A DNA stretch of 64,000 nt, taken from assembly GCA_965216295.1 (NCBI GenBank), contig OZ244141.1:429772-493771 (forward strand), written 5' to 3'. The position numbers and the translations under genes are program-made. The notes under the pieces are model-generated. The model was given only the letters and a program-made list of their open reading frames with translations, made no database searches and was not told where the DNA came from. Below, piece by piece: positions 18,117 to 30,234 of the stretch; the first letter of the stretch is position 1; the number at the start of each line of letters is the position of its first letter. This DNA comes from Minisyncoccota bacterium (GTDB taxonomy: Bacteria > Patescibacteriota > Minisyncoccia > Phycocordibacterales > JABAAK01).

Positions 18117-19163
18117 CTATATACGAAATGTGATGCAATCACCGTCTTTAACGACATATCCCTTCCCTTCTATACGAAATACTCCAACTTGTTTCGCTTG
18201 AGCAAGAGATGTCAATGCCACAGCATCCTGATACGCTATCACCTCTGCACGGATAAACTTTTCTTCAAAATCAGAATGAATTGCACGACCAGCTTCTTTT
18301 GCTGTTGATCCTTCCGTCACAGTCCATGCTCGTGTTTCTTTTTCACCGACGGTAAAAAATGTTATAAGACGAAGCGTTCGGTACGCAGTTTGAATAATCA
18401 CTTGAATATCATCCTCCTGTAACGTCACCGCGTCGCTTGTTTGTGCAATACTCTTTTCTGCAGTCACGATAGTCCACGGTATACCGTGTTCTTTCGCATA
18501 TGCGATAACACCCTCTGCCGCTGTATCATTTTTCGTAGTGGCGTTGATAACAAAAAATAGTGGTTTTGCAGTCAGGAGGTGAAGATGTCGTACTTCCTCT
18601 AACTCATGTTCAGTGAGTGTTTCATAGAGAAGAGTTGTTCCAGTTGCAACGGTGGTATGTATCTTTTTTAAAAGTATCTCTTCTTTCTCCGCTGCTTTCG
18701 TACCTCGTTTCACCTCTTTCTGTAACTGTCCTAACCGACGCTCAATCGTCTGTAAATCTGCCAGGAGTAATTCGGTGTGAATAGTGTCAATATCACGGTG
18801 TGCATCCACGGTACCGTCAACATGGGTAATGGCACCATCGGCAAACACTCGAACAACGTGTGCAATTGCATCTACCTCTCTGATGTGTGACAAAAAACGA
18901 TTTCCCAAACCCTCACCGTCTGCAGCACCACGCACCAACCCTGCTATATCAGTGAATGTAACGGTGGTCGGTGTCACCTTTTGTGAAGAAGCAAGTCGTG
19001 AGAGCTGCTCGAGTCGCTCATCAGGAACAATAACAACACCAACTGATGGATTGATAGTACAAAATGGAAAATTCTCCGCAGGAACTGCCTGTTTTGTCAG
19101 TGCATTAAAAAGCGTACTCTTGCCAGCGTTTGGCAACCCAACAATACCTACCGAAAGTCCCAT
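18117..19163 (-). CDS. ychF: ribosome-binding ATPase YchF (Obg-like GTPase family)
   Basis: GIVGLPNAGKSTLFNALT P-loop, DIAGLV G3 motif and a C-terminal TGS-like region are present. Confidence 0.9.
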   Translation of the reverse strand: MGLSVGIVGLPNAGKSTLFNALTKQAVPAENFPFCTINPSVGVVIVPDERLEQLSRLASSQKVTPTTVTFTDIAGLVRGAADGEGLGNRFLSHIREVDAIAHVVRVFADGAITHVDGTVDAHRDIDTIHTELLLADLQTIERRLGQLQKEVKRGTKAAEKEEILLKKIHTTVATGTTLLYETLTEHELEEVRHLHLLTAKPLFFVINATTKNDTAAEGVIAYAKEHGIPWTIVTAEKSIAQTSDAVTLQEDDIQVIIQTAYRTLRLITFFTVGEKETRAWTVTEGSTAKEAGRAIHSDFEEKFIRAEVIAYQDAVALTSLAQAKQVGVFRIEGKGYVVKDGDCITFRI

Positions 19164-19759
19164 ACCTCTGCGTCACGTTTTGCCATCTTTGCAACCTTTG
19201 TTATCCACCGACCTCGCTTTGCCTCTGAAGAACCTCGTGTTGGTCCAAAATGGCACACACGCACCGGTCTTATACCACAGCTTTTTAGGATACCTTTTGC
19301 GAGTTCATTAGTGTATGAACCCATTTTAAAATAGAGAAGGAGGGGGTGTACAGAACCGACAATATTGATAATACGAGCGCTCTTCTTCTTCAACAACGGA
19401 ACAAAGGTATCATCAACAAATTGAAATGCAAATCCAGGAAGAAATGCCCTATCAAAAAGCCCTTTCATTTTTGCAGGCATCGTGCTCCACCAATTTGGGT
19501 AGATAACAACAAAATGGTCTGCCCACTGAATATTTTTTTGAAATTGTATCAAATCTGGTTCTAGTTCTTGAATAACATCGTACCCTTGATGGAGTGTTGG
19601 ATCAAATGTTAACTCATCAATAGTATGTCGTCGTACCTCGGCACCCGCTTCTTTTGCTCCCCGCTCATATGCATCTGCCATACCATATGATAGGGATGAG
19701 TGGACAGGATTACCACACAATATATAAATTTTTTTTCTCTTCACTTCCATATAATGCAC
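19148..19759 (-). CDS. flavodoxin-like NAD(P)H-dependent oxidoreductase (NQO/MdaB-like)
   Basis: KIYILCGNPVHSSLSYGMADAYERGAKEAGAEVRRHTIDEL has the flavodoxin_2 architecture. The likely true start is the second Met (MEVKRKK). Confidence 0.55.
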   Translation of the reverse strand: MHYMEVKRKKIYILCGNPVHSSLSYGMADAYERGAKEAGAEVRRHTIDELTFDPTLHQGYDVIQELEPDLIQFQKNIQWADHFVVIYPNWWSTMPAKMKGLFDRAFLPGFAFQFVDDTFVPLLKKKSARIINIVGSVHPLLLYFKMGSYTNELAKGILKSCGIRPVRVCHFGPTRGSSEAKRGRWITKVAKMAKRDAEVWDFR

Positions 19760-19823
19760 TCACCCTCATTGAAACATCTCTCATCTCATAGGGGAGTATA
19801 TCACACGACCACATAGAAAGGAT

Positions 19824-20321
19824 TTAGGTAAAACGACCATGACAATAGTCAGCCAATTGAAAAAGCGTTACCATCACAACAACTAAAACAATATAGAGAA
19901 GAAGAGTGGCTGGGATGGTGAGAAGACCAATCGTTATAACAGTAGTATTGTATATCGCCAGTGTGTGCCACCCCGCAGCAATAATTGGTGCACCAAATGT
20001 TACAGAAATCATTTTCCGTGACATACAAATGGCAAGAACCATGGCGATAATGATGAGTATTGCTTTCACCGCATACTCTTGGAGTGCTTCTGGCACTGCA
20101 TCAAAAAGACCAAAGATAACTAAATTCACTGCAATGATAACGCCAAGTATGACATGAATAAAACGAAGTATGGAGTACTGTAACTGTATCAACCTATATG
20201 CCAAGCCACTGCTCGGATACCCATACTTTGCTACTAATATATACGAAACCACCGCCATCGTTGAAACACCAAACGCAAGACCGATGAGAATAGTTTCAAT
20301 GAGGGTGAGTGCGGTAATCAT
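19824..20321 (-). CDS. hypothetical polytopic membrane protein
   Basis: 165 aa with about four hydrophobic helices. Confidence 0.4.
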   Translation of the reverse strand: MITALTLIETILIGLAFGVSTMAVVSYILVAKYGYPSSGLAYRLIQLQYSILRFIHVILGVIIAVNLVIFGLFDAVPEALQEYAVKAILIIIAMVLAICMSRKMISVTFGAPIIAAGWHTLAIYNTTVITIGLLTIPATLLLYIVLVVVMVTLFQLADYCHGRFT

Positions 20322-20326
20322 ATTTA

Positions 20327-20596
20327 CTATTTTCGTTGAATTTGCATCGCTAGTGTACGCATCTCTGATTCATACTTTTTCATAACAGCAACACTGGCAA
20401 GGGTTTCATCCTGCCCTTTTCGTTTTTTCATTGCAATTTCTTGTGCAATACGTTCAAAGAGTGCTGGATTCTTTTCAAACATCTTTCGAAAAAGCGTCCG
20501 CTGCTCTTCAGGCATTTTCTTCAATTGCCTTTCAAGTGCTTTTTTAGTGATGAAGTCACGCAGTCCCATGACTGTAGTATATCGTATGATTTCCAC
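20327..20596 (-). CDS. small hypothetical protein (89 aa, charged and helical)
   Basis: ORF packed tightly (6-nt gaps) between the two flanking genes. Confidence 0.35.
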   Translation of the reverse strand: MEIIRYTTVMGLRDFITKKALERQLKKMPEEQRTLFRKMFEKNPALFERIAQEIAMKKRKGQDETLASVAVMKKYESEMRTLAMQIQRK

Positions 20597-21424
20597 CTAA
20601 AGATCTGCTATGAACGTCATGATGGCTTGTTGCACATTGGGAAAGAAAGCAACATCACTGTGTTTTGCTCCATCAATGAGAACATACTGACTGCCAGAGA
20701 TGCTATCGTGAAGTTTTTTTGAGAAATGTGCTGGGATGGTACGATCAGCGGTACCAGCGATGATAAGGGTGGGGCTTTGTACTGTTTCTAAAATGGCAAT
20801 GTTTGATTTATCCTCTTTGAGTAAAGTGGTGATAGGAAGATACCAGTATATGGAACTTGCAACATCAGCAACTGATGAGAGTGGTGAAATGAGAGTAACG
20901 CCAGAGACGGGATTTCTTGTTTGTACCATAGCAGCATGAGTGGATGCAAAGATGGTGCCCAGACTTCTCCCAACAGAAACAACGTCGGTGTATCCGTTGT
21001 GATCAAGCCATGTGATTGTTTTTGTCACATCCCCCACCATGTGTGATAGTGATGGTGATACTGTTGGATCAAGAAAACTTTCATACTCAACGAATATGAG
21101 TGTGTAATCATCAATGGTCAAGAGAGGTATATACCGAGAACGATGACATACATTCCCTGCATTACCGTGATAGTAGACGATGGCTTTCGTTGGTGATTTT
21201 TCACGAACGAACAGAACAGTGCCTTCCAGATTTATTCTCTTGAAATCATGAAACGCTTCACACTGATGTGCTGAATCTTCTGGTATCGCATCTGGATAAA
21301 AGAGGAGATTGTTTTGATTGAAATAAACGTAAGAGAGGATGATGAGATAACCGAGAAAGAGAAAGACGAATACCTGTGTTAGTTTATTAATACCACCACG
21401 AAAGAATTGTTTGATATTACTCAT
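20597..21424 (-). CDS. alpha/beta-hydrolase fold protein
   Basis: HGNAGN oxyanion-region motif and a GRSLG nucleophile elbow. N-terminal TM segment. Confidence 0.65.
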   Translation of the reverse strand: MSNIKQFFRGGINKLTQVFVFLFLGYLIILSYVYFNQNNLLFYPDAIPEDSAHQCEAFHDFKRINLEGTVLFVREKSPTKAIVYYHGNAGNVCHRSRYIPLLTIDDYTLIFVEYESFLDPTVSPSLSHMVGDVTKTITWLDHNGYTDVVSVGRSLGTIFASTHAAMVQTRNPVSGVTLISPLSSVADVASSIYWYLPITTLLKEDKSNIAILETVQSPTLIIAGTADRTIPAHFSKKLHDSISGSQYVLIDGAKHSDVAFFPNVQQAIMTFIADL

Positions 21425-21441
21425 TACTAGTCATACTTAGT

Positions 21442-21512
21442 CGGACCGCCGAGAATCGAACTCGGGCCACACGCACCCCATGCGTGCACACTACCATTAT
21501 GCTACGGTCCGT
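21442..21512 (-). tRNA. tRNA-Pro (anticodon GGG)
   Basis: Minus-strand cloverleaf folded by hand. Acceptor CGGACCG/CGGTCCG. Anticodon stem CACGC/GCGTG with loop AUGGGGU. T-arm CCGAG-UUCGAUU-CUCGG. CCA not encoded. Confidence 0.75.
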
Positions 21513-21570
21513 GTACTTACAACGTACACTGTACTCCGTATACTTTCCAGAATAATGGAAGATTTGAGAT

Positions 21571-22719
21571 TCAGTTGGCTGATGTTCTTGAGTCAGCCAG
21601 CCGAAAGATCAGATGGCTCAGTATAGTTATGGATTCTACCAACTCATCATTAGAGTACATTGTATTTCTAGAATTTTCTGGATGATGAATCTTATTTCTT
21701 ATATATATTGGCAAAATCACGTTATAAGAGATGCCATTATACTGATATTCTTTTGTTCTGAGTTCAGAATCAGCAAGCAATTCTTTAATATGATTTGACG
21801 CCTCTTCCATACCCACGCCAAGATTATGTTTTGTTCCATCCTCTTTATTCCTTATCAATGGAAAAATTTTAGAGAACAGGATTATATGTAACATTTCATC
21901 CTCAACTCCAAACCCAACATGACCCATCTTTACCTCCGTTCTTCCGTTATCTCCCTTATCAAAAGAATATATTTGCGTAGACTCTTCATCGTTCATGTTT
22001 GACCACAAAAAATATGAGTCATGCGTTGACAGTATCACCTGATGCCCATCAGAATTTGCGATTTTTTTTATTGATTTATTTAATATACGTTTAAGTTCAG
22101 GATGTAAAAAAAGTTCTGGTTCTTCAAAAAGAATTAATGTCTCTCTATCATCTTCAGTACCATCTTCAAGTATAGTGTTTTGAATCCTATCAGCATAAAC
22201 CTGTAACAAAGACACTATTAAGAGTCGTTGATATCCCTGCCCTATGCTGTCTAATGATATGTTTTCTCCTTCACTGTCTATATATCCAGTTTTTATATTT
22301 TTTATAAAAGATTTTAGAATTTCTGACTTGTTGATTTGATCAAATTCAATTTTCAAATCTATATTACCTTCTGTTATTGAATTAAACTTAATAGAAACAT
22401 CTTCAAAAACTCTTGTAATAGAGTCTTTTACTCCATCTTCACGAACTAATCTAATGTTCTCACCAATAATGGAAGAGAGGATTTTCATCAAAGAGGCACT
22501 AGTTGAACTCGTTTTAAACATGTCATCGCTCGGATTTACAACATTCGCTTTTATGAAAACAACCTTTATACTATCTTTATATTTTTTTTCAACTGATTCA
22601 AAAAACTTAGTTTTTCCTGTGTTGTTTTTTCCAACGATAACATTTAAATCTTTAAGATTATCTAATTGAAAACCACCAAAAATTGGAGGATTGCTATCTT
22701 CTATCTCTATGTTTTCCAT
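21571..22719 (-). CDS. ABC/AAA_21-type ATPase (SMC/OLD-like ATPase head), defence-associated family
   Basis: Walker A GKNNTGKT, Q/signature-like SIGQGYQ, Walker B LILFEEPELFLHP and H-loop VILSTHD are present. About 110 aa of unassigned C-terminal sequence follow. The gene is AT-rich. Confidence 0.6.
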   Translation of the reverse strand: MENIEIEDSNPPIFGGFQLDNLKDLNVIVGKNNTGKTKFFESVEKKYKDSIKVVFIKANVVNPSDDMFKTSSTSASLMKILSSIIGENIRLVREDGVKDSITRVFEDVSIKFNSITEGNIDLKIEFDQINKSEILKSFIKNIKTGYIDSEGENISLDSIGQGYQRLLIVSLLQVYADRIQNTILEDGTEDDRETLILFEEPELFLHPELKRILNKSIKKIANSDGHQVILSTHDSYFLWSNMNDEESTQIYSFDKGDNGRTEVKMGHVGFGVEDEMLHIILFSKIFPLIRNKEDGTKHNLGVGMEEASNHIKELLADSELRTKEYQYNGISYNVILPIYIRNKIHHPENSRNTMYSNDELVESITILSHLIFRLADSRTSAN

Positions 22720-22968
22720 ATCTTCAATATAACTTTGATCTTTTTTTTAGCAAACATTGTTTCACATTAAAATAAACATATATGAACACAATTCTAGATA
22801 AACTATCTTTAATTGCTTGTCTCATTAGGCAATTATTTACTTAATTCATGTTAGTTGTTAGGAAAATTAATCGTTATAACTTAGAGTAAAGTATTATTGA
22901 AATCTAAATTTCTCTCTATCTATATTTTCACAGCAACATGCAGCTTTACAATAAAATAGATAATTCTT

Positions 22969-24621
22969 TTATTTTTCTTCCTTAGACAGCAAAGCCTTCA
23001 ACCTACCATTTACATTATCAAATACACTTGTTAATCTATTCTTTGCCTCTTCTGTCAAAAGTGCCGTGTGCATAAGTGCATTACGAATCGGTCTATATTC
23101 TTTTGAATCAATTGGTAAATTATTAGTATCTCCAGCTCTATCTGCTATTTTAGCCAGTGCCGTCATATCTAGATATCCCAGATCTGTTTCATTTTTTCTT
23201 AATTCAATATTAATATTACCGTCTTTTTTATTTTTATATTCCACTTTTTTCAATCTATCAATCTCTATCTTATATTCTTTCTTTATGGTTAATTTATTTT
23301 TCTCAACATATTCTCTAAGTAAGTTTTCTAAAATATAACACTTTGAATATGAAGGAAAATTAAACTTTGATTCTTCTCTGAGATTTTCAAGAAAATCTTT
23401 ATACTCCTCATTTGTTGGTTTGTATTTGTATACATTTTGTATAGCATTAAATAATTCAATAGATTTGCGGTGCTCACCTGTCATTCTCTCATTCTCACTA
23501 TCACCATCTTCTCCAACCTCCTCTCTCCACTCATCCCATTCTTTTAAGATTTTAGGAAGTACTTTCTTTTTAAAGTCCTCAGAGAAAGAATCTATATCTT
23601 GAATATCTTTTTTTATATGCTCTCTTCCTGTTCCAAAAGGATCTTCATTGCCTGAATCAATATGGTCAATGTGTATTTGACCATACAAATAACTTTCTAC
23701 TACTCGGGTAGATGTAATTTTACTTAAAAAATTCTTCTCCCGCAACCTACCATTAACAAAAAGATCAACACCAACACGCTCTTCTAAGTTCAAAGCCTTC
23801 AAATATCTTGGCTTTCTTACAGAAGCTATAAATCCCTTAATTCTATCGTCGACAAAAGTTATTTCCCCTCCTTTTTTAATCTCTGTAAATTCAGATAACA
23901 ATCTGTCTTGAAATTTTACAGTCTTCCACACAAACTGTGTATTACTTGTCAAATCTTTAAGATCTTCATAAGATATAATTTTATCATTAACATGTATTTT
24001 AAAATCTCTATCTATCAGTGAAAATCTGAAATATAAAGCAAGTATTTTTCTCAACTGAGATTCCGATGAAAGTCTCGTTCTAAAATTTTTGAAAAAAAAT
24101 ATTGTTCCTTTCTTGTGGTTTTTGATGTATTGATCAAGAGACTTTAAATCAACAGAAGACAGGTTGTATGTTCCATCCCTATCGTATTTATCTTCCCTTG
24201 CTATTTCGTCATCAAGAGCTTTGTTATTTATTACACCTCCAGTGTACTCTGTGAATTCAGTCTTTGATGCAATACTAATTTCCTCTGATACACTCAATAA
24301 GGCTAACTTTCCTATTCCCTTTCTACCTATATACGGGCGTTTCTTTTTAGGTGAATGCGTTACATAGTTGTTATCACTTATTCTTTTTGTATAACCAACT
24401 TTTAGGAATTTGTGTTGAAAATCTTCTTCTGTCATTCCATGTCCATCATCTTTAATAACAAGAGTTTGTCCCTCTTTATCATAATAGATATAAACATTGT
24501 CTGCATCAGCATCCCACGCATTTGATACCGCTTCTCCTATAATTGTAGAAAAATCCCTATACAGACCTCTACCCAAAAGATTAAGTACATTCAGAGCAAT
24601 TTTGAAAAAAAAATTATGCAT
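22969..24621 (-). CDS. GHKL (HATPase_c_3 / MORC-like) ATPase with C-terminal HEPN-like motif
   Basis: N-terminal Bergerat-fold motifs GEAVSNAWDA (N-box) and DDGHGMT/GRKGIGKL (G-boxes). C-terminal EYRPIRNALMHTALL fits HEPN Rx4-6H (RNxxxH). The start ATG overlaps the dcm stop (ATGCATAA). Confidence 0.6.
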   Translation of the reverse strand: MHNFFFKIALNVLNLLGRGLYRDFSTIIGEAVSNAWDADADNVYIYYDKEGQTLVIKDDGHGMTEEDFQHKFLKVGYTKRISDNNYVTHSPKKKRPYIGRKGIGKLALLSVSEEISIASKTEFTEYTGGVINNKALDDEIAREDKYDRDGTYNLSSVDLKSLDQYIKNHKKGTIFFFKNFRTRLSSESQLRKILALYFRFSLIDRDFKIHVNDKIISYEDLKDLTSNTQFVWKTVKFQDRLLSEFTEIKKGGEITFVDDRIKGFIASVRKPRYLKALNLEERVGVDLFVNGRLREKNFLSKITSTRVVESYLYGQIHIDHIDSGNEDPFGTGREHIKKDIQDIDSFSEDFKKKVLPKILKEWDEWREEVGEDGDSENERMTGEHRKSIELFNAIQNVYKYKPTNEEYKDFLENLREESKFNFPSYSKCYILENLLREYVEKNKLTIKKEYKIEIDRLKKVEYKNKKDGNINIELRKNETDLGYLDMTALAKIADRAGDTNNLPIDSKEYRPIRNALMHTALLTEEAKNRLTSVFDNVNGRLKALLSKEEK

Positions 24622-25663
24622 ATGATACCCTAAATGTTTTAATTATTGCTTTACCAACAATCCTACCAAGTTCAACAGGAACCGCATTACCTATATGAAT
24701 ACCAATTTGAGTTTTTGATATGTTATTTATATCTTTGAAGAATCTATATTTTTTAGGAAATGTTTGTAATATTGCCCCTTCTCTAAGAGTAAGTGCCCGA
24801 TTCTGAACGGGATGTCCAAATCTGCCTGTTCCGTATCGATTAAACTGAGTTGTTATGGTTGGGCTTGGTTTATCCCAAGCCATCCTTCCGTATACAGAAC
24901 TGTATGTTGAACCACTATTCTTTTTATGACAATTAACCCTCAATTTCTTTGGCCAATCCCTCCAAGTACCTCCTGGTTTTGAGTATTTTATTCTTTCAAT
25001 ATTTATGAGAGTTAGACTTGGTGCAACATGTAAAGGATCTTTTTTATTTACTCTGCCTGGCAACACTCTTGGTAAGTCAGCAATAACATCTCTTACTGAC
25101 TTTTTTTTGTTATTGGCTTCTGGGATATCAATTTCTCCGATGCGCGAAGCTAATAAAACAAGCCTTCTTCTCTTCTGTGGCATTCCATATTTTGAACAAT
25201 TGATGATTTTGTATTTAACATCATATCCCAATTTTAATAAACTGTTCTTAAAATTTGAAAAAACTTTCTGTTTCTCCAAAAGAGGGACGTTTTCCATCGA
25301 GACTATATCAGGTTTTAGTTCTGATACAAGTCGACTAAACTCTTTTAGCAAACTCCATCTAATATCTTCCTTTAAATTTTTATTTTTTCTAATCTTGATA
25401 CTGTGTGTTGAAAAAGTTTGGCAAGGAGCACACCCAACTAATATTTTCACATCTGCACCTCTATAATATTTTTCAAGATCTTTACCTTTTATATTTTTGA
25501 TATCACTCTCTATAAACTTAGAATCATTATTATCTTCGTATGCAAATTTACATGTCACATCATTATCAATCCCAGCACGAACATCTATTCCAGCTTTAAT
25601 AAGTCCGTGGGTTAAGCCACCAATACCACAAAACAAATCAATTGCAACAAACTTCTTATCCAT
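24614..25663 (-). CDS. dcm: DNA (cytosine-5)-methyltransferase
   Basis: Motif I FCGIGG, motif IV GCAPCQTFS (catalytic PCQ) and motif VI ENV are present. 349 aa. Confidence 0.85.
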   Translation of the reverse strand: MDKKFVAIDLFCGIGGLTHGLIKAGIDVRAGIDNDVTCKFAYEDNNDSKFIESDIKNIKGKDLEKYYRGADVKILVGCAPCQTFSTHSIKIRKNKNLKEDIRWSLLKEFSRLVSELKPDIVSMENVPLLEKQKVFSNFKNSLLKLGYDVKYKIINCSKYGMPQKRRRLVLLASRIGEIDIPEANNKKKSVRDVIADLPRVLPGRVNKKDPLHVAPSLTLINIERIKYSKPGGTWRDWPKKLRVNCHKKNSGSTYSSVYGRMAWDKPSPTITTQFNRYGTGRFGHPVQNRALTLREGAILQTFPKKYRFFKDINNISKTQIGIHIGNAVPVELGRIVGKAIIKTFRVSYA

Positions 25664-25741
25664 AAATGCATTATAACGCTAGAAACATAACACCTCCGCA
25701 ATAGCGCTGACAGACCATAATGTAGTATAATCATTCAGAAA

Positions 25742-25815
25742 GGGCCCGTAGCTCAGTTGGCTAGAGCACCGGTTTTGCACTCCGGAGGTCGCAGGTTCGA
25801 ACCCTGTCGGGTCCA
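25742..25815 (+). tRNA. tRNA-Ala (anticodon TGC)
   Basis: Cloverleaf folded by hand. Acceptor GGGCCCG with the G3:U70 Ala identity pair. Anticodon loop UUUGCAC. T-loop TTCGAAC. No CCA encoded. Confidence 0.85.
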
Positions 25816-25816
25816 C

Positions 25817-26332
25817 ATGAAGGAAAACATCTTTTTGATAGGAATGAGTGGAGTTGGAAAAAGTTACTATGGAAGGAGAATTGCAAAGGAACTTGGCTTC
25901 TTTTTTATAGACACCGACGATTTGTTAGAGAATCAGTACGGTAATAAAGACAAGTTACTTGATACAGGAGAAGAAAATTTCATGAAAGCTGAAGAAAAAA
26001 TACTCCTCTCCATCCCCCAATCTTTAGAGAAAACAATAGTAGCTTCTGGCGGTAGTTGTATCTATACAAACAAAGGTATGGAACATATAAAAAGGTTTAC
26101 AAACATTGTCTATCTCATGAATTCTATAGAGAACATAGCGGGCAATGTTGAATTAAAAAATCGTGGAGTCGTGGGATTAAGTAGATTAAGCCCAAGAGCA
26201 CTCTTAGAAGAAAGAGCAAATCTCTATGAAAAGTATTCTGATTTTCAGATAGACTTACGGGCATTACAACGCAATCAGAAAAAAGAAGAATCACTAATAC
26301 ATCAACACATCGTAAAAATAGTATCGGTATAG
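25817..26332 (+). CDS. aroK: shikimate kinase-like P-loop kinase
   Basis: IFLIGMSGVGKSYYGRRIAKELGFFFIDTDDLLE shows Walker A plus the D(T/S)D motif of shikimate kinases. The first 20 codons of the track ORF (25757) are read-through of the tRNA-Ala gene and are discarded. Confidence 0.55.
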   Translation: MKENIFLIGMSGVGKSYYGRRIAKELGFFFIDTDDLLENQYGNKDKLLDTGEENFMKAEEKILLSIPQSLEKTIVASGGSCIYTNKGMEHIKRFTNIVYLMNSIENIAGNVELKNRGVVGLSRLSPRALLEERANLYEKYSDFQIDLRALQRNQKKEESLIHQHIVKIVSV

Positions 26333-26951
26333 GGAGAGCTCATACAAGAATCAATAACAAGAAAAACCCTCGTACCATGAGGTAGCGAGGGATAAAGTGT
26401 GCTGAGTCAAGGTGGTGTTGAAAACCCTTGCTACATTAAAACGAAACTAAGATTTACATTACAGGATTAGACCAATTCCTACCAACTATGAAAATAAGAA
26501 CATGGTTTACCCGCAAAAACTCAATAAAGTAATAACGTATCCCCCAGCACGAGAGTAATTGTAGCATGAAATATAATATAAAAAAGTAAAAACCCTCGTA
26601 CCACGAGGTAACGAGGGGAAATGTGCTGAGTCAAAGTAAAATCAAGCTCGCTTTATTGAGTTTATGGAACTCGTTTTAAACTTGATTAAGACTTAATGTC
26701 CCAGCACCGAAAAATTATAACATGAGTAGTATAAAAAAGCAAATACCCTCGTACCATGAGGTAACGAGGGATAAGGTGGTGTGCTGGGCCGAAAGCGGAA
26801 ATCATCAAAAATCTCCACTACACTAATAACAAACAAGAAAATAGAATGTAGTATATGTAACCTCTCAGCGCTGTCAAATCATTTGTATAAACCACAATAG
26901 AAAACCACGATAGCATATAATTGATTTAAATAAGACCACTTACACTCCTTC

Positions 26952-27049
26952 GATTGAAAGAATCAATTGTGCCCAACACTCCAAAACGACTATAGCACAA
27001 ATAGTATAAAAAAGCAAATACCCTCGTACCATGAGGTAACGAGGGATAA
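26952..27049. repeat. ~98-bp direct repeat copy A (about 95% identical to 27192-27288)
   Basis: gattgaaagaatcaattgtgcccaacactcca...ccctcgtacca(t/c)gaggtaacgagggataa occurs twice, 240 bp apart. Confidence 0.8.
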
Positions 27050-27191
27050 AGTGGAGTGTTGGGTCAAAGTGAGATTAAAACCTCACTACATTAAAACAAA
27101 ATTAAGCAAATCGAAGTGCGAAATTTAGAGTTCTCTTATAGAAAACCGTAACGGTAAACTACAATAAGATAAGCAGACTCTACATCAATCT

Positions 27192-27288
27192 GATTGAAAG
27201 AATCAATTGTGCCCAACACTCCAATACAACTATAGCACAAATAGTATAAAAAGCAAATACCCTCGTACCACGAGGTAACGAGGGATAA
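27192..27288. repeat. ~98-bp direct repeat copy B
   Basis: Same sequence as 26952-27049 with three substitutions and a 1-nt deletion. Its 3' outer-stem partner is not conserved. Confidence 0.8.
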
Positions 27289-28145
27289 GTGTGCCAGAAC
27301 GTGAGCCCGTCCATTAACTCAACGCATTAAAAACAAAGGTGAACGTTAGTTTTCTGAAACTTATACATTCATTGAATCCTCGAATGATAAGCAACATTTG
27401 GGGTTTGATTCCCTTACCAACACTACCAAGAATCAATGCTTCTGGCACGACGGTGAGTATAGCATATACAACAGGTGTGTGCAAAAGCAAAAAAGAAATA
27501 TCATATCATGGATCAAGAAAGATAATAGAGAGTTGTATAGAAAACCCCCCCCCTGTCGTCAAAAAAAGGGGGGGTGCACTAAGCAAAGTGGATTGTTAAA
27601 CCCATTACATCAAATCAAGGTCAAATCATATAACCAAAGAAACAAGACCTGGTTCCGAGTTGTCAGTAGTTTAAACCTGTATCTTTTTTATTCTAAAATC
27701 TATAACCTTTCCAAGAATCAATGTGCTCAGTACGATAGTTATTGTAGCACAGGAAAAAACAATGTGAAGAATTGTATAAAAAAACCCCTCGCTATATGAT
27801 GAGAAACGAGGGGGTACCGAGCAAAATGGACTCCTGGTTAAAGCCCATTAACATTAAATCAAGATCAGATCAGCTAGCTAAAGAAGAAAAATACGGCTTC
27901 CCTGTTGTCAGTGGGTTGTAGTCAGCAGACTACAGTTTGCCTATATTCTCCTGTTACTCTATAACTCTATAATCTTCCCAAGAATCAATGGCGCTCAGTA
28001 CAATGATTATTGTAACATAGGCAAAAAAAATGAACAAGTCACAATTAATAAAAAAGATGGCCACATAAAGTGGGCGTCAGCACTAATTCTATCATTGTTT
28101 TGCTGTGTTAGAATACACGACAGTTATACAAATAAATAAATAGTA

Positions 28146-28601
28146 ATGAAAAATGTAAAAACGATTGTCCTACTCTTTCTTGCCATCGTTATTATCGGCG
28201 TTATTTATGTAGTGACGAAAGAAGATACTAATTACATCGTGCCAGCAACTGAAATAGAAGATGTTGATGTTGCATTAGATTCTGTAGAAAGTGGCTCATA
28301 CATCGCATACACCGATGATGCAGCAAAAGCGGCAGCAACAGAAGGTTCAGCCGTTCTCTTCTTTTATGCATCATGGTGCCCAAGTTGTCGTTTGTTAGAT
28401 AGTAATATTCAATCAAAACTGAAAAACCTACCATCAGAGATTACCATACTCAAGGTTAACTACGACACGCAGGACGATTTGAAAAAGAAGTATAAAATAC
28501 GACGACAGCACACACTCGTTCAGGTTGATGCTTCCCTCAATCAAATTAAGAGCTGGTTTGGGTCTCGTAACATAGCAGACATTGTTGCACAAGTACAGTA
28601 A
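28146..28601 (+). CDS. thioredoxin-fold thiol:disulfide oxidoreductase, membrane-anchored (WCPSC active site)
   Basis: N-terminal TM, then FFYASWCPSCRLLD, a CxxC thioredoxin-like motif. Confidence 0.7.
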   Translation: MKNVKTIVLLFLAIVIIGVIYVVTKEDTNYIVPATEIEDVDVALDSVESGSYIAYTDDAAKAAATEGSAVLFFYASWCPSCRLLDSNIQSKLKNLPSEITILKVNYDTQDDLKKKYKIRRQHTLVQVDASLNQIKSWFGSRNIADIVAQVQ

Positions 28602-28609
28602 ACGAAAAT

Positions 28610-29329
28610 ATGGAATCACTCCTTTTTGCGTCATTTGTTGCCGGGTTTCTCACTGTCCTTGCACCATGCCTTCTACCCCTTCTGCCAGTTGTCATCGGTG
28701 GAAGTTTAGTTGGTGGTAACAAAAGGAATCCATATATTATTATCGGTTCACTCCTCTTATCGGTTGTCCTCTTCACACTTATCATTGAAGGGCTTTCACT
28801 ACTCTTCTATATACCGCCATATATCTGGAGTTATATTGCAGCAACTCTCGTCTTACTCGTCGGTCTCTCGTTCCTTGCTCCATCGCTTTGGACAAACCTA
28901 CCTTTTATACGAAAACTTGCTAACAAATCTAACACGACACTAGGGAAAGGTACACAACGAAAAGGAATTCTTGGTGATGTGACAATCGGTGCTTCACTAG
29001 GTCCTGCTTTCTCTTCGTGCAGTCCAACATTTCTCATTATCCTTGCCATCGTACTACCAAGAGGATTTTTTGAAGGATTACTCTACCTCATCGTGTATGC
29101 CCTTGGGTTGGGTGTTGTCCTTCTCTTTATTGCCCTTCTCGGACAAAAAGCAATAGAGAAGTTGAATATTTTTGCAGATGGAGGCGGGTGGTTCAAAAAA
29201 ATCATGGGTATCATCATGATTATCATTGCTATTATGATTTACGCTGGTTTTGATAAGACAGTTGGTTCTCTTCTATTAGACATTGGTCTCTTTGATACAA
29301 CACAACTTGAGTTGATGGTACAACCGTAG
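28610..29329 (+). CDS. ccdA: cytochrome c biogenesis / DsbD-type transmembrane electron transporter CcdA
   Basis: Polytopic membrane protein with the FLTVLAPCLLPLLP conserved-Cys helix. A second Cys lies in FSSCSPTFL. Paired with the upstream thioredoxin-like gene. Confidence 0.65.
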   Translation: MESLLFASFVAGFLTVLAPCLLPLLPVVIGGSLVGGNKRNPYIIIGSLLLSVVLFTLIIEGLSLLFYIPPYIWSYIAATLVLLVGLSFLAPSLWTNLPFIRKLANKSNTTLGKGTQRKGILGDVTIGASLGPAFSSCSPTFLIILAIVLPRGFFEGLLYLIVYALGLGVVLLFIALLGQKAIEKLNIFADGGGWFKKIMGIIMIIIAIMIYAGFDKTVGSLLLDIGLFDTTQLELMVQP

Positions 29330-29379
29330 AAGTAATAGATTTCTAGAGAAACTCTGTAAACGTGTGATATTCTGCAGGT

Positions 29380-30234
29380 ATGGATATTCATAAAAAGGTG
29401 CTTTTGGGGGCTGTAGCACTCACCATCACCATCCTTCTTCTTCTTGGATTTATCTATATTATCATCAGTGACGATACGTTTGAACCAGGAGGAAGTAAGA
29501 TCAATAAAGAACCGCTTAATATTGATATCACAGGAAACATCCGTAGTGGTGATATCACTCCCGAACTAACAAAAGAGACTGACGAAACAAAAACACCACC
29601 AGCAACACTCACTATCCGTGAAACCATCTCACCTTTTGATGAAGTTGAGACAGCGGAGATTCTTGACACACTACCTGATGGACAAGTAGCGTATCGTGTT
29701 TGGTACAACGCCTCATGGAGCAAGGAGACTCATCCCGACTGGTTCCCCCTAGGAGCCCACCTCTCACCAATGGTTGCTTGGACACAGGTACGAAAAAACA
29801 CCATCTTTACCATTGGTAAAAAAGCCAGTGCTGGTATGGAAGAGATGGCAGAGACAGGTGCGCCCATAGCACTCACCGAAGAGTTAGATCGTCTCCGCAA
29901 AGATAAGTTGCTTGTGGACTATGCCATCGGTTCACTCATTAATGCCCCTGGCTCTGACGAAGTAGTCATTACTGCCTCACAGGCAGCATCAATAGTATCA
30001 GTGGTGAGTATGGTTGCACCCTCCCCTGATTGGTTTATCACCGCTCATAATATACCTCTCTATGAAAATGGTGAGTGGAAAGATTTCATTGAAGTTCACG
30101 CAACACTCTATGACGCTGGAACCGATGAAGGAAAAAAGTTTCGATCGTTGAATAAAGATAGTGAGGATGTTATTAAACTGTATCGGTCAGATCTTCCACC
30201 AATCGCATCGTTCTACTTCATCCGCGTAAAATAG
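29380..30234 (+). CDS. secreted/anchored Spondin_N-like domain protein
   Basis: N-terminal TM. YRVWYNASWSKETHPDWFPLGAHLSPMVAWTQ resembles the WS-ETHP...AHfSP core of the spondin N-terminal domain. Confidence 0.4.
   Translation: MDIHKKVLLGAVALTITILLLLGFIYIIISDDTFEPGGSKINKEPLNIDITGNIRSGDITPELTKETDETKTPPATLTIRETISPFDEVETAEILDTLPDGQVAYRVWYNASWSKETHPDWFPLGAHLSPMVAWTQVRKNTIFTIGKKASAGMEEMAETGAPIALTEELDRLRKDKLLVDYAIGSLINAPGSDEVVITASQAASIVSVVSMVAPSPDWFITAHNIPLYENGEWKDFIEVHATLYDAGTDEGKKFRSLNKDSEDVIKLYRSDLPPIASFYFIRVK

Follow-up and report, generated by a model that had tools for sequence, protein, structure and literature searches.

The window, meaning the whole 64,000-nucleotide stretch of DNA analysed here, encodes a GHKL-type ATPase that ends in a probable HEPN-type RNase domain and is partnered by a cytosine-5 DNA methyltransferase (Dcm). 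With a probability of roughly 0.55, we favour the reading that the two genes constitute a defence or addiction module resembling a restriction–modification (R-M) system, in which an engine of the BbrUII/HgiDII type carries an HEPN-type RNase in place of a DNase, and whose methylation-gated, ATP-driven response to unmethylated foreign DNA would be to halt translation. The features of the locus, numbered by position in the window, are as follows.

21440–21511, minus strand: tRNA-Pro(GGG), one boundary of the islet (ARAGORN, Rfam)
21571–22719, minus strand: compact ABC-type ATPase, downstream
22969–24621, minus strand: GHKL-S5 (paraMORC-type) ATPase with a C-terminal HEPN-like domain, 550 aa, the gene under study
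22972–23421, minus strand: HEPN-like four-helix domain, residues 401–550 (H1 405–441, H2 448–466, insert 467–501, H3 502–517, H4 524–546)
23068–23085, minus strand: RNALMH, the Rx4H motif, residues 513–518 (R513...H518), putative catalytic pair, from the translation
23314–23328, minus strand: ENLLR (E432, N433, R436), second invariant polar cluster, near the C-terminal end of H1, from the translation
23422–23601, minus strand: helical linker, residues 341–400, with a long helix 341–368 and a helix 382–397
23602–24231, minus strand: middle alpha/beta (S5-like transducer) domain, residues 131–340, with GHKL motif IV (G172-T173) and invariant R294, R333 and E334
24232–24621, minus strand: GHKL (Bergerat-fold) ATP-binding domain, residues 1–130, with motifs I–III (E30/N34, D58xGxG62, G99xxGxG104-K105)
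24614–25663, minus strand: cytosine-5 DNA methyltransferase (Dcm), 349 aa, the M partner (Pfam DNA_methylase, E = 9e-58; PADLOC MTase_II, E = 2e-89)
25742–25816, plus strand: tRNA-Ala(TGC), the other boundary of the islet (ARAGORN, Rfam)

An earlier account of this DNA, made from its letters (hereafter the sequence-only reading), had placed the open reading frame at 22969–24621, which was borne out to the nucleotide; its strand, absent from that account, is minus. The interval includes the stop codon, and translation from an ATG start yields a product of 550 aa. The three Bergerat-fold boxes that had been named were all located (EAVSNAWDA at residues 30–38, DDGHGMT at 58–64 and GRKGIGKL at 99–106), and the GHKL ATP-binding motifs I–IV (E/N, DxGxG, GxxGxG and GT) are intact, with E30, N34, D58, G60, G62, G99, G102, G104, K105, G172 and T173 kept in 65/65 sequences. 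HATPase_c_3 was the sole Pfam match in the protein (residues 24–125, E = 6e-19), and the GHKL domain is followed by an S5-fold transducer domain. The full-length AlphaFold model had a pLDDT of 80.6 and a pTM of 0.75. Searches of PDB sequences by phmmer and by profile returned matches to the GHKL N-terminal part only and none for the C-terminus. The label of a MORC-like GHKL ATPase, given to the protein earlier, is correct; paraMORC is nevertheless the safer name in published nomenclature, because the sequence relatives are annotated as ParaMORC3 or BbrUII-like and the likeness to MORC was measured at the level of the fold only.

Residues 4–376 aligned with positions 1–371 of the 659-position NCBIfam model NF050001 (BbrUII/HgiDII), with 256.5 bits against a cutoff of 550, and the Type II REase models of PADLOC gave the same partial N-terminal match. 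Full membership of BbrUII/HgiDII was rejected, as the score fell below the 550-bit cutoff and the alignment covered the N-terminal ~370 residues only; the homology stops within the helical linker, at about residue 382. BbrUII and HgiDII are Type II restriction enzymes that cut GTCGAC, and their partners, M.BbrUII and M.HgiDII, are C5 methylases. A true member of their family, encoded on a Halobaculum plasmid (800.8 bits over model positions 1–659), has residues 4–382 alone in common with the window protein, at 31% identity, and no alignment was obtained beyond residue 382. Its C-terminal ~290 residues contain HPWLLDPSWE and GRLDL...VIIDLKRP and look like a PD-(D/E)xK nuclease of the DUF4263/Shedu kind, for which Pfam gave no confirmation. 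The Dcm of the Halobaculum plasmid is 49% identical to that of the window over its full length (342 residues), variable region included, which equals the closeness among the Dcm partners within the window protein's own family. From this identity, the methylase of the window is predicted to act on a GTCGAC-like site. The BbrUII/HgiDII systems are thus alike in their homologous GHKL + S5 engine and in their gene order, M then R with overlapping ends, and they differ in the effector, which is a PD-(D/E)xK-like C-terminus there and an all-alpha Rx4H domain of ~150–170 residues, without a D...(D/E)xK motif, here. Comparison of the sequences indicates that the methylase and the ATPase engine share ancestry with BbrUII/HgiDII and that the effector domain is swapped, with a DNase effector probably exchanged for a probable RNase effector.

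The 15-residue segment in which an HEPN signature had been seen, EYRPIRNALMHTALL, is present as residues 508–522 and begins 43 residues from the C-terminus (about 45 in the sequence-only reading), with R513 itself 38 residues from the C-terminus. The match to the Rx4-6H signature stood in so far as RNALMH is there; as a bare pattern it did not rise above chance, with three matches in the 550-aa protein (at 205, 379 and 513) against about two expected from composition. Because this count is near the chance expectation, the case for HEPN was built on conservation, structure and position rather than on the pattern. Conservation was assessed in 40 database homologues and in 65 sequences from independent species-representative genomes, which are ~39% identical across the C-terminal domain; both R513 and H518 were invariant, in 40/40 of the former and in 65/65 of the latter. 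Only eight columns of the last 150 are invariant among the 65 sequences (E432, N433, R436, L489, P511, R513, H518 and T519), and position 514 is D (44 sequences) or N (21) and nothing else, as in the HEPN consensus R-[DN]-x3-H.

By the published definition (PMC3710099), an HEPN domain is an up-down bundle of four helices; a variable insert separates helices 2 and 3, and the Rx4-6H motif closes helix 3 and extends into the loop that precedes helix 4. The predicted topology of the C-terminal domain matches this definition, being an up-down four-helix bundle with an insert between H2 and H3, in which H3 ends with the turn that contains R513 and the loop begins with H518; from the same topology, the ENLLR cluster is expected at the bundle end that carries the Rx4H motif. 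HEPN domains were the best structural matches of the predicted domain, and when the full-length model was compared, the first non-GHKL matches were HEPN domains again; generic helical bundles score nearly as high, and the evidence from the fold is moderate. Foldseek against the PDB returned nothing significant for the C-terminal domain, the best match, below significance, being Csm6. Pfam at E <= 10 gave no C-terminal match in the window protein or 22 homologues, bar one to HEPN_Swt1, which was weak (E = 0.048) and confined to 1/23 family members. The PDB sequence profile search with the C-terminal domain was empty, and no sequence or profile tie to an established HEPN family was found with Pfam, the PDB profile search or hhalign against the Ymh family (see below). 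A weak match of the ATPase protein to the PADLOC model PDC-M34B was also recorded (E = 0.004). The conserved motif in its modelled position points to a probable HEPN RNase domain. Neither of the two outcomes that the sequence-only reading had named as refuting it, an Arg/His pair not kept in homologues and a predicted C-terminal fold unlike HEPN, was observed.

The same residues would be put to another use if the protein truly were a restriction enzyme of Type II that cuts DNA. In that case the all-alpha Rx4H domain would be a new DNA-cleaving or DNA-recognising fold, with a site composed of E432, N433, R436, R513, D/N514 and H518, or else an HEPN-fold domain turned into a sequence-specific, methylation-sensitive endonuclease that works with the HgiDII-type methylase. 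In either form we consider this unlikely. The locus does resemble a classical M-R operon, in that the genes overlap and no other nuclease is conserved, and annotation by adjacency in the manner of REBASE would assign a restriction enzyme to it; the methylase and the ATPase engine both have homologues in the systems of true GTCGAC-cutting endonucleases; and the invariant cluster holds acidic and amide residues able to bind metal. However, HEPN domains are the best structural matches, the motif agrees with HEPN both in form (R-[DN]-x3-H) and in position, and Pfam-type searches of the ATPase protein found no PD-(D/E)xK, HNH, GIY-YIG or PLD match. The Rx4-6H chemistry of HEPN RNases, moreover, uses the 2'-OH of RNA and cannot cut DNA, and we know of no DNase with the HEPN fold. 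If the second form were true, no DNase with the HEPN fold would have preceded this protein, and restriction enzymes would gain a new fold.

The sequence-only reading had not recognised the fusion. That part did not hold for the design as such, as GHKL–HEPN proteins near R-M genes were published in 2008 and 2013; it held for the C-terminal family, which is distinct from the published one and unclassified. Orlowski and Bujnicki (2008; PMC2441816) described five REBASE subfamilies with N-terminal GHKL domains, in which the C-terminus of R.HgiDII was left without assignment and that of R.NmeAIP was assigned to Hypoth_Ymh. Anantharaman et al. (2013; PMC3710099) recognised Ymh as an HEPN family fused to paraMORC ATPases in R-M neighbourhoods, the only HEPN family listed there with a paraMORC partner, and predicted that the paraMORC-Ymh fusions act as PrrC/RloC-like RNases that back up R-M. 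The window protein is like these in combining a GHKL/paraMORC ATPase with a C-terminal HEPN-like domain beside R-M genes; it differs in that Ymh occurs also alone and with other partners, whereas the window domain was found only in the GHKL fusion. Identity of the C-terminus with Ymh itself, for which the family models are PF09509 and TIGR02391, was rejected, as PF09509 matched 0/23 members at E <= 10 and hhalign gave a probability of 0.07%. The Ymh alignment for hhalign was built from a Neisseria gonorrhoeae GHKL pseudogene that ends in a Ymh domain (FRNPVQH); as a positive control, the C-terminus of the Neisseria GHKL protein and its homologues carry PF09509. Judged by sequence, what appears to be new here is an HEPN-like C-terminal family, unclassified and restricted to the GHKL fusion, and the design principle itself is already published. 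No experimental data on this family or on any GHKL-HEPN protein were found in the literature.

The methylase gene lies directly upstream of the ATPase gene, and its TAA stop codon overlaps the ATG of the latter (ATGCATAA). A scan of species-representative genomes yielded 64 full-length members of the ATPase family in many bacterial phyla and in archaea, the lineages being Patescibacteria, Bacteroidota, Bacillota, Actinomycetota, Pseudomonadota, Planctomycetota, Chloroflexota, Thaumarchaeota, Thermoplasmata and others. An orthologous Dcm, 45–60% identical to that of the window, was found directly upstream on the same strand in 57/64, and a Dcm elsewhere in the locus in four further relatives. 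The pair is also kept in five metagenomic loci in which every other neighbour differs, and no conserved third gene was found across the loci of the 64 relatives and the five metagenomic ones. Because the linkage to Dcm is conserved while the other neighbours vary, the two-gene pair was taken as the functional unit. It is present on a conjugative Paracoccus plasmid (pBM153) as well. At one of the loci, L002, the methylase and the family member are separated by another GHKL protein, whose C-terminus is different.

This neighbourhood bears on the proposal that the C-terminal bundle is a non-catalytic HEPN-like module that would bind nucleic acids, mediate dimerisation or regulate, a type of role proposed for human sacsin, and that the protein is an ATP-driven accessory to a nuclease encoded elsewhere. 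Some HEPN domains are indeed non-catalytic (PMC3710099), nucleases and helicases encoded by other genes are frequent partners of MORC and paraMORC proteins (PMC2292703), and the tandem arrangement of two GHKL proteins with different C-termini at L002 would suit an accessory role. Yet HEPN domains of this kind typically lose the Rx4-6H motif, and its R and H are retained here in 65/65 sequences; no further gene is conserved beside the pair; and the sister family carries an apparent nuclease at the same position. We regard a purely non-catalytic role as improbable.

Within the window, the genes for the methylase, the ATPase and the ABC-type ATPase form a small low-GC islet exactly between the two tRNA genes, with a GC content of 0.29–0.34 for the three genes against about 0.42 in the surroundings. 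A three-gene system that would include the ABC ATPase was rejected, as a homologue was found in 1/64 of the relatives' loci and 0/5 of the metagenomic loci. The view of this ABC ATPase as N-terminally truncated was discarded too: Pfam matched its C-terminal half only, yet a Walker A motif is present at residues 30–37. A scan of the islet for promoters and terminators gave counts equal to the shuffled expectation.

A function outside defence, in which a MutL-like factor coupled to Dcm would repair the T:G mismatches that arise from deamination of 5-methylcytosine or take part in epigenetic regulation, has in its favour the MutL-like fold and annotation, with some entries named "DNA mismatch repair protein", and the common linkage of Dcm genes to Vsr repair genes, but is very improbable in view of the position of the pair in a low-GC islet between two tRNA genes, its patchy scatter over distant phyla and archaea with a copy on a conjugative plasmid, its frequent adjacency to other defence genes, the identity of its closest characterised relatives (restriction enzymes and a Shedu-type defence protein) and the lack of a MutL C-terminal endonuclease domain.

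In the favoured reading of an R-M-like module with an RNase effector, the cytosine-5 methylase would mark a short DNA site wherever it occurs in the host's own DNA, and the GHKL-S5 (MORC-like) module would be a clamp, dimerising and powered by ATP, that takes hold of DNA and signals when incoming molecules carry the site unmethylated. When the GHKL domains dimerise, in an ATP-dependent step, two HEPN-like domains would meet and form between them a composite Rx4H active site of the type usual in HEPN RNases. This site would cut cellular and/or phage RNA (tRNA, rRNA or mRNA) in a metal-independent manner and so stop translation, with abortive infection, growth arrest or dormancy as the outcome rather than restriction of DNA; loss of the module would lead to post-segregational killing. 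Sensing of DNA or of its methylation by the GHKL-S5 part, activation by dimerisation, an RNA substrate and an abortive outcome are what we infer from the known behaviour of GHKL ATPases and HEPN RNases. A domain for DNA recognition was not identified, and no recognisable DNase domain was found in the methylase's partner or in any conserved neighbour.

Among characterised systems, VcSduA (PMC12137116) is a GHKL + PD-(D/E)xK protein in which the ATPase and the nuclease are both needed for anti-phage defence. Such proteins (VcSduA/paraMORC3, Shedu type I-D, GHKL + DUF4263) resemble the window protein in that a GHKL ATPase controls a C-terminal nuclease effector within a single polypeptide. They differ in that their effector is a DNase, that a methylase partner is not obligatory and that the protection is direct and not abortive. 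The anticodon nucleases PrrC and RloC follow the same predicted logic, set out in PMC3710099: a regulatory NTPase module is joined to a C-terminal HEPN RNase and tied genetically to R-M, and tRNA is cleaved as a suicidal back-up defence. Their ATPase, however, is of the ABC/Rad50 type and not GHKL, no sequence relationship was detected, and they are found beside complete Type I/III R-M systems, where they do not stand in for the R subunit. [quoted passage not shown]

If the favoured reading holds, the module would read DNA methylation and yet execute its response on RNA, which would make it a direct bridge between R-M and abortive infection of the kind predicted in 2013 by comparative genomics. 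The occurrence of the same methylase and MORC-like engine with either an apparent PD-(D/E)xK DNase or an HEPN-like domain is a natural experiment of unusual clarity. The signal to which the GHKL engine responds, and the way in which an effector is licensed by it, bear on how the eukaryotic ATPases MORC and SMCHD1 couple the engagement of DNA to downstream action.

The C-terminal domain is without a Pfam model despite the spread of the family over dozens of phyla. A profile of this domain run against 1.84 billion representative proteins recovered 250 proteins only, of which the full-length ones have 550–590 aa and all end in the domain; the shorter sequences have the appearance of fragments. 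Other architectures were sought in this search and none was found; as far as it covers, the domain appears to occur only in the GHKL fusion. With the whole protein as a query, a protein collection contained thousands of relatives, the best 120 of which are all full-length (541–565 aa), 45–54% identical and from very different lineages. A phage collection held no full-length family member; a phage gene annotated as ParaMORC3 matches residues 1–408 of the window protein at 31% identity. Other GHKL relatives near Dcm genes, in Campylobacter, Streptococcus and Burkholderia, have different C-termini with no Ymh or HEPN match, and one of them gave a weak NucS-like match. In genome annotation and in pipelines of the REBASE kind, proteins of the family go under the names "ATP-binding protein", "DNA mismatch repair protein" and putative restriction enzyme.

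The GHKL-HEPN gene, which encodes a paraMORC-type ATPase with a C-terminal HEPN-like Rx4H domain, lies in a stretch of three low-GC genes (GC 0.29–0.34, versus ~0.42 outside) that is bracketed exactly by tRNA-Pro(GGG) and tRNA-Ala(TGC), and which has the appearance of a small defence islet that was acquired. The features of this region are as follows:

21440–25816: low-GC islet of three genes, with its flanking tRNA genes
21571–22719, minus strand: ABC-type ATPase of 382 aa, matching AAA_15/AAA_21 and OLD/GajA/AriA-like PADLOC models
25757–26332, plus strand: shikimate-kinase-like ORF, matching Pfam SKI and NCBIfam hom_kin_desulfo

In the ABC-type ATPase, residues 30–37 form a Walker A motif (GKNNTGKT), and a C-terminal 'YIRNxIHH' motif was conserved across 21 homologues, with H346 invariant and R341 and H345 nearly so. 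The majority of these homologues were metagenomic, and the named ones came from Parcubacteria and Zambryskibacteria. The protein may be a second NTPase with an Rx4H motif within the same islet, reminiscent of the R-M-associated anticodon nucleases PrrC and RloC. No linkage to the GHKL family was found elsewhere, a homologue being present in one of the 64 loci of relatives.

The listed TTG start of the shikimate-kinase-like ORF, which scored 114 bits against hom_kin_desulfo (cutoff 197), overlaps tRNA-Ala (25742–25816). As the family matches begin only at residues 21–25, the true start is probably ~20 codons inward. Downstream, positions 26333–27397 (~1.1 kb) contained no ORF of at least 100 aa, and the enclosing 2-kb bin showed a strong AT skew of +0.23. 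Scanning of positions 19000–30000 at Rfam gathering thresholds returned nothing beyond the two tRNAs that bracket the islet.

Three loci from other genomes contained split or shortened genes:

L017, 372–1383: upstream match to the cytosine-5 DNA methyltransferase Dcm, in two pieces, in one relative
L012, 2926–4605: R.NmeAIP-like GHKL-Ymh gene of Neisseria gonorrhoeae (record NZ_CP119142.1, of 2.17 Mb, which PLSDB lists as a plasmid)
L011, 3992–5305: BbrUII/HgiDII-like gene adjoining a Dcm on a Burkholderia glumae plasmid

In L017, the GHKL-HEPN gene is seemingly intact alongside the split Dcm match, which reflects either a MAG assembly error or an effector that tolerates methylase loss; the latter, if true, would speak against strong autotoxicity. 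The unannotated gonococcal gene is split by a stop codon into at least two ORFs and appears to be a pseudogene. The Burkholderia gene encodes only 437 aa and covers positions 1–411 of the 659 in the BbrUII/HgiDII model; IS110 and IS5 transposases come after it, and its nuclease domain was probably lost through an insertion.
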